DNA of 64,000 nt from Eledone cirrhosa (GCA_964016885.1 OZ024740.1:175522001-175586000); one strand, 5' to 3'; positions 2,060 through 64,000 are shown, numbered from the stretch's first letter. Notes: generated by a model from the sequence alone, not told the origin. Numbers and translations: made by a program.

Positions 2060-2340
2060 TATATAAACAAATAGTAGAAAGGAAAAAGATCCTTTCAGTA
2101 GAAAATGTTGACGAGATTTGTTTCAGTGAGATATCAAAACATTCATTTATTTACAATAGCAGTTTCAGCATTAAATGCATTGACAATGCATTTAATGCTG
2201 AAACCGGTATTGTAAATAAATTAATGTTTTGATATCTCACTGAAAAAAATCTCGTCAACATTTTCTACTGAAAGAATCTTTTTCCTTTCTACTACTTGTT
2301 TTTATATATATCAACTCGTGTGTTACCTTTCTCCATTCGA
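2060..2340. mobile_element. Foldback element in (TA)n retaining only the 3' half of an HHR (GAAACCGGTA)
   Basis: About 120-bp inverted arms centred near 2183; TA tracts at both ends. Confidence 0.6.
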
Positions 2341-2623
2341 TATATCTATATATATCTATATATATATATATACACATATATATATGGAGGATTCGGGACC
2401 CCCACACTCTACTAACCCAAGCACTCTAGTGAGTAATGGTCTAACAGGTTTTTACTGCATCCAGCCTGATTTATATATATATATATATATATATATATAT
2501 ATATATATATATATATATACTGAATTCGGAGACCCGAACTTTACACTAGGTACCACCTGTTACCATTCCATCTCTTCCATCCTCTTTATCTCTATGTACA
2601 ACATGTATTATCTTACTGCCATT

Positions 2624-2741
2624 CTGAGTTCAAATCCCGCCGAGGTTAACTTTGCCTTTCATCCTTACGGGGTCGATAAAATAAAGTACCAGTAATACAC
2701 TGGGAAATTGCTGGCCTTGTGCCAAAAGTAGAAACAATTAT
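2624..2741 (+). mobile_element. tRNA-derived SINE family 1 (5'-truncated)
   Basis: TGAGTTCAAATCCC B-box-like motif followed by GCCTTTCATCCTTACGGGGTCGATAAAATAAAGTACC; near-identical copies at 23373, 31748, 37378, 45093, 45279, 50084, 55389. Confidence 0.85.
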
Positions 2742-4739
2742 CTTACTACAACTTGATCTATATTGTATTTCCCCTTTGCTCTGATTCCTCCGATATGTTC
2801 TTATACACTTTCGTCTTACTACATCACTACCCTAGCTATGAAGACGTTTTATTTATGTATTTTACTTTTTACTTTTATTAGTTTATTAATGTATTTTTAT
2901 CAATGTATTCTTTATCTTTGTATTTTATCTTTGTATCCTGCTTTTATTTATATGTAACTTTCCTTACTCAGGTCATTATGCACCTTTCATAGCCCCCTAC
3001 CCACCAAAGAACCACACTACTTGATGTGGTGGCTTTTCCCGGCTGCGCGATGGGCGCTCGGAAAGTTCAGCCTTCCTTGAGGGCTTGGAAAAATAAATTT
3101 CCCCTCTTTCGGTAAACGAAATTACTCGGAGCGGTTAACTTTGCCCCGGGCCCGCCGCGCCGTCTGTTTTTGTCGCCATATTATACTTATCCCTATAAAC
3201 TCTAGGCTTAGGCATATCTGTTAGCTGTAACATGCCTCTATTGGCACGTAAATAAACCCCTCATGTGTGAATTAATAATATTCGTTTGGTATTGACGATG
3301 GCCTGTCGAAATTGTAGACTTCCCGCTAGCTCACCCGGGGCCTAGTGTAGCTACGTTCCTAGAGTACTCGGAAAAATTAATTTCCATTTCTTTCGCTGGA
3401 CGATGCCTCTCGAAACTGGCTGACACGTGGTTAGGAGGTGCTGGCTGGGATTCACAATCGAAGGCTTTAATCTTTACTCTATTATCCCACCCTGATATCT
3501 TATCGAGAGTAACTTTTTCATATAAGACTCTCTCTGTAAGTTCATTAAATAAATTTTTTTAATTTATTTTCCAATTTTCAATTTAATACTTTTTAATTTA
3601 ATTTCATCCTATAACTCGTAACATAAGTTTAACGTTCCAATTTTCTGTTCACACATTAGATCATACAGACACCCATTATATATGCCTTTGTTAAAATATA
3701 GATTCTTTAGAATAACATTTTTCGCGGCGTTTTCTAGCTTGACTGTAGTGTGACCCTTACGCTGACTTCTTTCTTTTTTTCTTCTTTCTTTCCCTTTTTT
3801 ATTCTTTGACGGAGAGATGGTAGTACATTATAAGCCTTCGCCCCCTCACCAGATGGTCATTAGCAGAACGAGTAGCCATCACTTTGAGGGCGACTGGCCG
3901 AGGTGAAGGCAGCTAGTTGGTCAGTCGTCCCCTTTGTCTCTGATTTTTCGGACCCATGGTTTTTACATATTCCTTTGTTATATTTCGAATACCTGATGAA
4001 ATCACTGGATTCATATGGAACCCGGTCATAGTATAATAAACCTTTCAATGATTTACACCAGTCCAGCCTCCTGTTATTTGTATTGATAATTAACTCCGTA
4101 TTCGCACCACCAACTACTCAAACGAAGACGGGTTAACTGCACTACGTTGAGTACTCTCCACAATATTACACCAAGATTGAGCATACGGAATTCTATCCAG
4201 TGGTGAACCAACAAACCTAAAGCTATATATATATATGCCAAAAACCGGGGGTTGCTTCCCTTGTTGGAAATAAACGTGACAACGAAATGATTGAAAGCTA
4301 TCTATTACGGCGGTAGCATTGAGTTACAGTTCACACCCGTTTGAGGCAAAGAACGAAATGCCTGTCGAGGAAGTGAGTCCTCTGTTCGATAATGGAATAC
4401 CACAAGCTTACGTGTCACGTAAGTTGGATTGATGATTTCGGATTCATAGAAACATATCGGACGTATTGCAGAATATCGTTCGATTTGTCCAGGTCTGTTG
4501 TTTTAACCTGATTAGTTCTTTCGTTGTTTTTGTATTGTATGGTTGGGTTTCGCCTGCCGCAATTTTCAATTTGTCAAGCTATCTAAACGTAATGTTATTA
4601 CTCTGAGGACCTACCCTTATTGTTACTCATTCCTAATTGTAGGTCGACTTTGCTTGGCTATAGCCAAAGCTTCGATTTTACTAAGCTTCCACTTGTGTGT
4701 GTGTATATATATATATATATATATATATATATATATATA

Positions 4740-5578
4740 GGAACAAGTAAGACCCCAACGGCTGAGCTCAAGCCGTTTCGACGGCTAATTCTGGACTGAA
4801 TGAAAATTTATTCTGGTATTTAAATAGCCTAGCTTATCAAGGGGTAATTCCATATATGGTCAAAGAGATAATCACCAGGATTTGTCACATCACAAGTTAG
4901 TAGTAAATCTGTGATGGCAAATTAGTGGGCGAAGGGGTAGCTAAACCTGCCGGTAGGAGAAAATGGGAGAGGGTGTGGAGTAGACCCATTCATGCGTTGG
5001 TAGTGCCGGCTACAGCTGGGCGTGAGGTCAAAGAGGATACTGTGGAGGGGGAGGGGGAGGAAGTCGAAACGGTAAGTAGAACAATGAAGGGTAAAACTAT
5101 AAAAAGTACTGAGAATGAAAAAAAAAAAGAAGAAGCAAAGTCTGGTTACTAAGACTTAAGTCTCTCGCTATTGCTAGGCTAAAGAAATACATAAATAAAT
5201 AAATAAACAAATAAATGAATAAAAGAATAGATAAATAAATAAAAAAATATAATAAAGAATAAAAAATAAATAATAATAATAAAAATAATAGACTAGGTGG
5301 GACGGAAATAAAGGGACCCTTATAAGAGGTATAAGTGCGTGTATCGTACGGTGACGGGCCAAAATACTAAAGAGACTACCACGAAATAATAAAGGTTTCT
5401 ACCCCAATCACAGGGCCAGCAACCACCCAAAGCAAGAAAGTAAACTAGTACGAGAATATAATTCAGGGTCCCGAAAAAAATATTAATGCTAACTCTAAGG
5501 GTACCGCCACGAAACAAAAAGTATTGAGTACTTTGGTGCGTTATGGTCCACCTGGTTCCTTACCACATTTCCTTCGTT
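4740..5578 (-). mobile_element. HHR-bearing non-autonomous element, family A
   Basis: Flanked by (TA)n; homologous to 7986-9085 in opposite orientation; shared terminus AACGAAGGAAATGTGGTAAGGAACCAGG. Confidence 0.8.
4752..4845 (-). ncRNA. Type I hammerhead ribozyme, U3-A8 core variant
   Basis: ACCCC-TTGATAA-stem II(GGCTA/TAGCC)-GAAA-stem III(ACGGCT/AGCCGT)-T-GGGGT. Confidence 0.8.
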
Positions 5579-5742
5579 ATATATATATATATATATATAT
5601 ATATATATATATATATATATATATATATATATATATATATATATATATATATATAGGTAAGTTATTCCGGGTTGAATCGGAGGTAACAACAGTAACTCAG
5701 GTACTCAATACAAAGCAGAGTATAAAATATTTAATATAGATG

Positions 5743-5793
5743 AGATTCTACAGGACTAGAACTGTTTCATACTTGAGAAATCATCAGAAATTT
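5743..5793 (-). ncRNA. Type I hammerhead ribozyme (inverted copy of 6486)
   Basis: CTGATGA..GAAA, stem III ACAG/CTGT, GUA; stems I and II have mismatches. Confidence 0.7.
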
Positions 5794-62113: not shown

Positions 62114-62544
62114 TCCTGTGTCAGTGTTGAACAAAAAGGTGACGTGGTTGCCTTAACACCGTATGGCATAAATTCAGGCTGTTCAGTTTGTTTACAAACG
62201 AACAAAGCGACGTTATAATAAGCGCCGCTAAACTGATACGTGCATATATGTATGTGTACCTGTATGCATATGTATGTATATATGTATATATATATATATA
62301 TATGTGCATGCTACTGTACGTCTGTATACATATATGTATGTACGTATACATGCATACTTACATTTAAGTAAGTGCCATACTAAGAGTGAGAAATGAAATT
62401 TCGTTTTCATTTTGTTTCAATTTATCGTTTTCGGTATGCCGGACCGATTTAACTCACTCAATATGCAAATTAGGCTGCTCAGCCGTTAATTTTCATAAGG
62501 AAAGTATATACTTTCGAACGTTCAACTATCTGGCAGATGGGTAA

Positions 62545-62587
62545 ACGGTGCTGATGATAGCTAACAAGCTTGAAACTAGTACATCGT
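62545..62587 (+). ncRNA. Minimal type I hammerhead ribozyme
   Basis: Identical to 62071. Confidence 0.9.
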
Positions 62588-62924
62588 TCCTGTGTCAGTG
62601 TTGAACAAAAAGGTGACGTGGTTGCCTTAACACCGTATGGCATAAATTCAGGCTGTTCAGTTTGTTTACAAACGAACAAAGCGACGTTATAATAAGCGCC
62701 GCTAAACTGATACGTGCATATATGTATGTGTACCTGTATGCATATGTATGTATATATGTATATATATATATATGTGTGCATGCTACTGTACGTCTGTATA
62801 CATATATGTATGTACGTATACATGCATACTTACATATATATATATATATATATATATATATGTCCCAAGGCTCTGATACCATCAACACTATAAACACAGA
62901 GCTGGCATATCTAAGAACTGACTA

Positions 62925-62980
62925 ACTGCCTGATGAGGTCATAGTCATTCAATGGCTATCATCGAAATATATATAACAGT
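62925..62980 (+). ncRNA. Type I hammerhead ribozyme
   Basis: ACTGC-CTGATGA-GGT.ATAGTCATT/AATGGCTAT.ATC-GAAATATATATA-ACAGT. Confidence 0.8.
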
Positions 62981-63136
62981 AAATAAAGGATTATGAGTTC
63001 ATGCAATTGACTTATGTTTCGTCACTATATATATATATATATATAAAATAATAAAGTTATACACATCAATATATATAAAATAACAAAGTTATACACATCA
63101 ACAACATATGTACTTGTCTATACCACACTAATTCGG

Positions 63137-63191
63137 ACTGCCTGAAGAGGTCACAGCCAAAGATGGCTGTCACCGAAATATATATAGCAGT
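63137..63191 (+). ncRNA. Type I hammerhead ribozyme
   Basis: ACTGC-CTGAAGA-GGT.ACAGCCA/TGGCTGT.ACC-GAAATATATATA-GCAGT. Confidence 0.9.
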
Positions 63192-64000
63192 AATAAACGA
63201 AGCTAAATTTTAAACATTTGACTTATTTATTTTATTTTATTTTACATTACTCCGGAGTAAGCAAACCAATCTGCGCACTTCGTCGAGTGCTCCAATCTGC
63301 ATACCCAGGTGTTGGTATATATATATATATATATATATAATCATGATAAACAATTTATTATTGAGTGCTCTCCTTCAGTTCATTGCAACTAACATTACTA
63401 ACATACACACTTATATAACTATATATGTATCTGTATGAGTGTGGGCTTATGTGTTAATACGTGTGTGTGTCTGCATGTATAAGTGTGTGTGAGTGTGTGT
63501 GCATAACGTTAACACAGTACTTGACGTTGCCTGGGAAACAATGGATTTAGTCATAGGATAATTTTGTGGAACAGAATCACGGTCATTCTGCATAAATATA
63601 TTATCGGAAACACAACGTATATGTTCTTGGTACCAGAGATAGAGAGATTAACACATTTATATAAATATATATATATAAATATGTGTGCAAGTAACATTAC
63701 TAACATACGCACTTATATAACTATATATGTATCTGTATGAGTGTGGACATGTGTAATACGTGTGTGTGTCTGTATGTATAAGTGTGTGTGTGTGTGTGTG
63801 TGTGTGTATGTGCGCGCGTGCGTGTATGCGTGTGTGTATCATGTATACATGATACATTCATATACATACATACATTCATGTATATACATACATACATGCA
63901 TATATACATCTCTAGGAATAATACTAAGTTGAAATGTAATTTGGGACGCTTGTTAATAAACAAAGACTGTTATTCAACCTAAACGTAACTTGTAGGCGAT

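Follow-up and report, generated by a model that had tools for sequence, protein, structure and literature searches.

What occupies the spaces between the TA tracts of the genome of the cephalopod Eledone cirrhosa? The question is raised by a stretch of 64,000 nt (OZ024740.1:175522001-175586000), called the window here, which is part of a genome of 3.0 Gb and includes 203 TA tracts of at least 8 bp. The original prediction was that many of the segments between these tracts are non-coding retroelements with type I hammerhead ribozymes, mobilised by a Penelope-like element that encodes a GIY-YIG endonuclease. The evidence described below suggests that the window very probably samples a bloom in which Hydra-clade Penelope-like elements are accompanied by non-coding retrozymes that employ the Hydra enzyme.

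Hammerheads in the window are far above chance, as a comparison with shuffled sequence demonstrates. A motif is counted as intact if CUGANGA, GAAA and UH occur in type I order together with stems I-III. A scored type I descriptor, which allows a long stem II and a palindromic stem III, finds 20 intact motifs, every one with a score of at least 10, and none in 12 block-wise dinucleotide shuffles, where no score exceeds 7. A strict type I descriptor gives 10 matches versus a mean of 0.3 in 40 shuffles of the window, and the string CTGANGA by itself is found 55 times, against about 22 in shuffled sequence. Homology adds 12 loci to give 32, and six degenerate hammerheads were added by eye, at 3993(+), which is weak, 21254(-), 22445(-), 22733(+), 50348(-) and 50491(+). 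The total is about 38 loci in about 18-21 families on both strands, in agreement with the predicted diversity. The predicted number of about 40 ribozymes, or one per 1.6 kb, is therefore close for loci, but only the 20 motifs with an intact core and all stems, or one per 3.1 kb, can be called complete. Half of these lie at 4.7-23 kb, which had been named the densest region, but the other 10 lie at 43-64 kb and none at 23-43 kb. Of the segments longer than 60 bp between TA tracts, 28 of 77 carry a hammerhead locus if four of the by-eye loci are counted; therefore, most of the supposed beads on the TA string are without one. At the first coordinate of the prediction lie two inverted arms flanked by TA tracts (2066-2300), and of the hammerhead each arm has the 3' half only.

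The motifs are abundant across the genome. In a sample of 79 fetched 10-kb stretches, of which two flank the window and the other 77 are spaced out, there are 60 intact hits versus 2, 0 and 0 in shuffles. The density is 76 per Mb, and therefore the window has about four times the genome average. Without the flanking stretches, 59 hits lead to an estimate of about 230,000 genome-wide (bootstrap 148,000-323,000). Four exact patterns, which check the core and the stem III region but not every stem, were counted in the whole genome, with reversed patterns as the control. The counts are 64,470 (15 reversed), 40,375 (9), 16,912 (0; the pattern for family F5) and 12,108 (0), or 133,865 versus 24 together, and the sample rates predict them to within about 16%. 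A looser pattern, with 13,211 matches versus 2,964 in its control, was kept out of this total. Both the count and the estimate are above the 126,247 hammerheads of the axolotl, the highest published figure that was found (PMC7229834). No account of hammerhead abundance in cephalopods was found in a search of mostly open-access literature; the supplement of PMC7229834 may list cephalopods. In Octopus vulgaris, Penelope-like elements are described as 6.83% of the genome, and ribozymes go unmentioned in the text consulted of the repeat annotation (PMC13282606).

The 141 hits obtained in the window together with 0.86 Mb of the genome fell into 44 clusters, denoted by F and a number. One of these, family 6, is a TA-rich satellite with a mismatched core; it was judged false and excluded from the analyses of open reading frame (ORF) linkage, 3' ends and junctions.

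Might the counts result from chance matches in AT-rich DNA, or from fold-back artefacts of assembly? The sequence is AT-rich, has many inverted pairs, and shows no hammerhead among its listed Rfam matches. The Rfam check proposed with the original prediction gives nothing at the gathering score; no hammerhead family is among the 150 of 348 window matches listed at E ≤ 10, nor among all 16 matches for 58120-59300. The Rfam matches are microRNA-like, to TA and inverted repeats, and Rfam overlooks these hammerhead motifs. However, the shuffles (0-2 versus 60 hits) and the reversed patterns (24 versus 133,865) refute this explanation. In addition, the two arms of an inverted pair stop at separate fixed sites, with up to 20% difference between them, and F0-type and F4-type sequence is found in contigs of four sequencing runs under three organism labels. 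The probability that chance or assembly accounts for the population is practically negligible.

Some of the hammerheads belong to coding elements. The largest family, F1, is the pseudo-long terminal repeat (pseudo-LTR) of an element with reverse transcriptase (RT) and GIY-YIG, with a hammerhead at each end and TA outside (loci L130-L132). The coding unit is 3,676 bp, and hammerhead pairs 3.7 kb apart enclose the RT and GIY-YIG frames. Therefore, the F1 copies in the window are truncated ends of such an element, each with an inverted piece. One, at 43549-43873(+), has TA on both sides, an intact hammerhead at 43678-43742(+) and another at 43579-43650(-) that is cut in stem I; the other, at 53472-53785(+), has a hammerhead at 53589-53653. 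Families F2, F3, F10 and F16 are positioned downstream of Hydra-type ORFs. The window includes a 5'-truncated F2 element at 36994-39586(+), with an ORF remnant at 37879-38971 that includes GIY-YIG, a 3' pseudo-LTR hammerhead at 39341-39478, and an inverted copy that ends in TA and has a hammerhead at 37107-37245; the core of the family is CCGAUGA. A short interspersed element (SINE) lies inside the element at 37372-37555, and another F2 copy (L133) has an open frame of 727 aa.

As read from the sequence, the encoded proteins carry the marks of the Hydra clade, which are a C-terminal GIY-YIG, DKT, a CxCx5C linker and no CCHH. In F1 and F2, RT is followed by a C-terminal GIY-YIG, and the RT motifs were read from an alignment matched to published Hydra rows. 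DKT replaces DKG in L130 and L132, with RWR in L132 and RWK in homologs. The CxCx5C linker is present in both families, and the endonuclease is without CCHH. CxxC is present in L133; CxH is without its H in both F2 copies, but present in homologs. The GIY-YIG match in Pfam is below the cut-off (E 0.0095), and Pfam gives no family for two long ORFs. The named homologs of the retroelement proteins of the window are from Argonauta and Octopus. The published Hydra clade inserts into (TA)n and bears canonical hammerheads, with one low-copy Octopus family described (PMC8557442). At 3,676 bp, F1 departs from the length of under 3 kb that is published for the clade as a tendency and not a rule. The predicted GIY-YIG driver is thus present both in the genome and in the window itself; the GIY-YIG fragment of the window has 63,608 first-look candidates in the genome, and 15 Hydra-like ORF remnants occur in 0.79 Mb of the sample. 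Two further observations concern coding elements. A Hydra-type ORF remnant that is 63% like F1 lies 4-6 kb upstream of the window (L027:4042-6003). Pairs of F5 hammerheads about 6 kb apart (G000:C1:2875631-2882161, 5399407-5405514 and 14205274-14211277) may mark a long coding element.

Other families are non-coding. Head-to-tail units of 424-482 bp in F0, 485 bp in F42, 660 bp in F41 (at other genome sites) and 990 bp in F13 each have a type I hammerhead. In F0, F13 and F42 the longest ORF that starts with ATG is 34-76 aa, GC is 32-36%, and the units folded as circles have z of -6 to -8 and are 64-69% paired, so that by sequence these three families fall within the definition of non-LTR retrozymes. 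The window copy of F41 has no ORF of 120 aa, and none of 14 F0 loci is preceded by an ORF remnant. The prediction that all of the elements are non-autonomous and non-coding is thus correct for F0, F13, F41 and F42, but F1, F2, F3, F10 and F16 are ends of coding elements. Fourteen window loci belong to the non-coding tandem families or close relatives (six in F0, three in F13, two in F42/F18, and three in F39/F41, one of which was read by eye), and at least eight to truncated ends in ORF-linked families (three in F1, two in F2, two in F3 and one in F10). In the 1.5 kb upstream of each of 125 sampled hammerhead loci, an ORF remnant is present in only 7 cases; therefore, the population is invisible to ORF annotation, as had been foreseen, partly through truncation.

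The structure of the non-coding copies is informative. All 20 of the F13 3' ends that were fetched stop at one base, followed by (TA)5+ in 19 and by a broken TA run in one; in the tandem unit the sequence continues past this base with other letters, not TA. The 5' ends of F13 are variable. F42 forms arrays of up to about nine units with two fixed ends and inverted pieces, and its best copies are 99% alike across contigs; F41 also has arrays, fixed ends and inverted pieces. An F0-type array with a 466-bp unit has at least 31 units, of which those compared are 98.9-100% alike across 13 kb, and on the 5' side it closes with a unit that is truncated, followed by a copy in inverted orientation and by TA. 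An array that ends in this way would fit rolling-circle reverse transcription of a circular RNA. The contigs from sequencing runs show no empty site, and at the long end of F0 some of them break off in TA-rich letters.

Could the tandem units instead be pseudo-LTR minisatellites, expanded by unequal crossing-over, such that the entire population is debris of coding Hydra elements with no circle and no mobilisation in trans? F1, F2, F3, F10 and F16 do have the status of debris, and local expansion from pseudo-LTRs is proposed in a 2026 preprint (10.64898/2026.07.22.740005). In one array (L081), there are one private and no shared substitutions among six units; units so alike therefore do not allow a single rolling-circle event to be separated from later expansion by shared and private variants. 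However, copies of F13, F41 and F42 are scattered over many contigs, and in them one fixed 3' end at TA is combined with variable 5' ends in a circularly permuted unit. The F0 loci without an upstream ORF remnant, the inversion that closes the 31-unit array on its 5' side, and the strong folding of the circular units also argue against debris, and we consider this explanation unlikely.

The ends of the copies connect both kinds of element to TA tracts. In the 79 stretches, (TA)5+ occurs within 300 nt downstream of 53 of the 60 intact hits versus 20% of random positions, which bears out the predicted association. Among family pieces, 125 of 149 end in TA versus a background of 4.8%; rows for F3 are excluded from these and the junction counts because its reference contained simple repeats, and some F2 rows derive from a SINE piece in the reference. 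Families with sufficient copies have two fixed 3' ends, which are separated by about 60-110 nt. Measured from the cleavage site to the next TA, these are at about 48 and 140 nt in F1, 26 and 113 in F3, 52 and 151 in F4, 53 and 152 in F7, and 85 and 198 in F42. At the 5' junctions of the 125 TA-ending pieces there are 76 inverted partners, 13 TA and 36 other sequences, the last partly due to reference divergence, and inverted pairs mostly use one of each 3' end. A shared tail hairpin was not found in F1, F4, F3 or F7 (z of +0.9 to -1.6), and is strong only in F42. A Penelope RT studied in vitro is described as nicking AT-rich DNA and starting at two internal sites, which determine the tail, with no need for ribozyme cleavage (PMC11167929), and tails of 30-40 bp are given for published elements (PMC8557442).

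Alternatively, another enzyme, from Naiad Penelope-like elements or from long interspersed elements (LINEs), might have mobilised the tandem families. Octopus Naiads are described as inserting in (TA)n with the same inverted and tailed structures (PMC8557442), LINE ORFs are common in the sample, and an abundant family without canonical hammerheads (at 7987-9085, for instance) has the same architecture. Naiads, though, are described as being without canonical hammerheads and long inactive in cephalopods, whereas F42 copies are 99% alike, and two start sites with inverted copies are not given as LINE features (PMC8557442). The ORF-linked families have a C-terminal GIY-YIG and hammerheads, unlike Naiad with its N-terminal endonuclease, and F0, F5 and F13 share with published Hydra hammerheads a U-U opposition where stem II begins at its base (PMC8557442). 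Mobilisation by another enzyme is therefore quite improbable. The hammerhead-free family itself is TA-flanked, with inverted pieces and two ends, at 4740-5577, 7987-9085, 20072-20147, 49917-49986 and 53883-54055. It has 21 sample hits, occurs at other genome sites as opposite-strand pairs about 4 kb apart, has no ORF linked to it, and is possibly the 3' region of a Naiad.

Stem III is self-complementary in 16 of the 20 intact hammerheads if G-U pairs are counted, a form described as needing a dimer for cleavage (PMC4209133). The stem III region is 4-19 nt in all 20, such that stem III is present in every one and these hammerheads are not minimal; the stem II region is 12-97 nt. Among 24 related sequences of F1, F4 and F7 type, 12 of 16 pairs have compensatory changes on both sides, pairing is 94.8%, and the core is invariant. 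This covariation among families indicates that the source elements would have kept the hammerhead fold. Two variant cores are found in ORF-linked families: CAGAAGA is family-wide in F3 (11 of 11 clustered hits), and CCGAUGA or a close form is found in F2 (14 hits).

Bringing these results together, we infer TA nicking, mobilisation in trans, cleavage of dimers and a circular template. The GIY-YIG domain of the Hydra protein would nick (TA)n, and cDNA would start at one of two fixed internal sites in the RNA, located 20-250 nt past the point of hammerhead cleavage; the template would therefore be uncut or re-ligated there. Reverse transcription would usually stop early to give short copies. Often, a further cDNA, begun at the other start site, would be joined in inverted orientation at the 5' end, so that one insertion may leave two hammerheads. 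The main reason for the abundance of hammerheads would be their position immediately before the point at which reverse transcription begins, where short copies retain them, and therefore their high count would not require selection on each copy. Insertions would leave flanking TA where later ones could land, therefore building clusters like beads on a string. F0, F13, F41 and F42 would be copied in trans, probably from circular or multimeric RNA cut by the hammerhead, and therefore as arrays that are fixed at one end and differ in length.

A bolder version of the model is that the Hydra RT copies hammerhead-made circular RNAs by rolling circle, with arrays of at least 30 units from one event, and also lengthens its TA primer in the manner of telomerase. 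We regard the combination as doubtful, but lean slightly towards the rolling-circle half by itself. The TA-building half is compatible with the finding that, of 407 long TA tracts, at least 89 have a hammerhead locus no more than 200 nt away. If the combination is true, then the elements build their own (TA)n targets, in a self-feeding loop that shaped the microsatellite content and left more than 200,000 ribozymes.

Several results weigh against the proposed explanation by Hydra elements and retrozymes. Units of F0, F13, F41 and F42 have no clear homology to six sampled coding elements, pseudo-LTR included; F0 scores higher in one comparison, for which simple repeats are probably the cause. 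It is therefore architecture alone that points to the enzyme partner, and Naiad elements, which target (TA)n in octopuses (PMC8557442), could serve some families. Only 13 of 49 non-inverted 5' junctions adjoin TA, a minority, albeit above background and with many divergent references. None of the four coding copies examined has a complete single ORF. The covariation set was picked by the descriptor and its members are related by descent; therefore, it is support rather than proof. As monomers, only 4 of 13 hammerheads fold with z below -2, and several of the motifs folded do not adopt the hammerhead fold.

The remaining features of the window are as follows. In the first part are a 3' fragment of F19 found by homology, with a degenerate hammerhead and a broken core (1821-1954, -), and an F5 inverted pair (5730-6549), with an intact hammerhead at 6486-6536(+) and one damaged in stem I at 5733-5803(-). 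An F38 segment between TA tracts (7652-7937, +) has a hammerhead with a long stem III and a weak stem II (7658-7740). An F0 retrozyme of about 1.25 units (10233-10762, -; hammerhead 10499-10541) is followed by F39, which is 68% like F41, with an inverted piece (11115-12281, -; hammerhead 11413-11490). The F9 segment (12332-12682, +) has a hammerhead at 12529-12645 with a stem II region of 88 nt and a fixed end 42 nt past the cleavage site, and F40 has an inverted piece (12765-13131, +; hammerhead 12978-13016). An F3 end, the 3' end of a Hydra-type coding element, lies at 13147-13452(+), with a CAGAAGA-core hammerhead at 13382-13432; a second, short and degenerate, was found by homology (16460-16561, +). 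F18, which is 69% like F42, has an inverted piece (14621-15299, -) and a hammerhead with one core change (14904-14984), and an F0 copy (16786-17257, -) also has one core change (17046-17088). The F13 array, 2.6 units of 990 bp with TA on both sides (17353-19954, +), has hammerheads at 17666-17791, 18658-18782 and 19646-19770. F41 with inverted pieces (20865-22194, +) has hammerheads at 21825-21902(+) and, degenerate, at 21254(-), and the by-eye pair at 22445(-) and 22733(+) lies in an inverted pair at 22347-22831.

In the second part, an F10 end (47372-47853, -) has a degenerate hammerhead (47421-47536), and an F0 inverted pair with short and long 3' ends (48212-48924) has two imperfect ones (48405-48467, -; 48606-48668, +). 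The inverted pair at 50235-50608 holds the by-eye motifs at 50348(-) and 50491(+), similar to motifs that the loose genome pattern found. A young F42 retrozyme with a 485-bp unit (54085-54601, -) has TA on both sides and a hammerhead at 54166-54250. Two intact hammerheads (58161-58223, -; 58319-58381, +) lie in an F7 inverted pair (58114-58426), and an F43 hammerhead is found at 59138-59182(+). An F0 tandem retrozyme, 2.4 units of 474 bp (61694-62833, +; hammerheads 62070-62114 and 62544-62588), is followed by two F4 ends with TA between them (62862-63315, +; hammerheads 62925-62980 and 63137-63191).

Other sequences were also observed. Inverted pairs without hammerheads lie at 9287-9412, 35760-35840, 41398-41728 and 48007-48102, and their hairpins score as microRNA precursors in Rfam. 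A SINE-like repeat has nine copies in the window; it recurs in or beside the F2 pseudo-LTR near an (ATT)n run (L004, L005, L118 and L133) and, in F4 copies, at the 5' junction (L162 and L164), suggestive of repeated targeting or template switching. Decayed LINE fragments were read from the sequence at 1-1740, 24243-24850, 26540-27860 and 59342-60320, the last with a zf-RVT match. An element at 42449-43346 with 103-bp terminal inverted repeats and a transposase-like remnant is presumably mariner-like, and (GGT)n and (ACC)n arrays lie back to back at 51580-52780 to give long low-complexity frames.

Inverted pairs and predicted self-cleaving motifs in such numbers could have effects on transcripts and on double-stranded RNA, in animals that are known for RNA editing. 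The very young F42 alongside abundant Hydra ORFs offers a ready pair of RNA and enzyme.

Much of this system is already known, as the driver class, the (TA)n preference and the hammerheads are described (PMC8557442), and the kinds of element are mostly known. The Hydra clade, with Hydra-1_Obim (Craig et al. 2021, PMC8557442), is described with the same C-terminal GIY-YIG, DKT, CxCx5C linker and absence of CCHH, the same (TA)n insertion, a 3' region that bears a canonical type I hammerhead, and inverted 5' copies. Truncated Penelope-like hammerheads (Cervera and de la Pena 2014, PMC4209133) are likewise mostly single or in opposite-strand pairs 100-700 bp apart, a pairing already attributed there to truncated elements, and fall into many families with few inside full elements; however, the counts given there are 2,000-9,000, and the motifs here keep stem III. 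Non-autonomous Chlamys elements, MRC1 among them (PMC8557442), are also non-coding, head-to-tail, microsatellite-associated dependants of Penelope elements, but are described as green-algal, without a hammerhead, and with 3' similarity to the coding partner.

Animal non-LTR retrozymes (Cervera and de la Pena 2020, PMC7229834; Li et al. 2026, 10.64898/2026.07.22.740005) share with the present families low-GC non-coding tandem units, one type I hammerhead per unit with a weak palindromic stem III, a self-paired circle, and co-occurrence with Penelope-like elements. In contrast, the units here are 424-990 bp and have no pseudo-LTR homology that was found, and their fixed (TA)n ends, inverted 5' copies and two start sites are unreported in the available text of those studies, which names no cephalopod. 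What is new is the scale, the tails of 60-110 nt, and structural evidence that links hammerhead retrozymes to Penelope enzymes at (TA)n. As those sources present it, the mobilisation of animal retrozymes previously rested on co-occurrence and pseudo-LTR similarity; here, the arrays bear the marks of Penelope integration.

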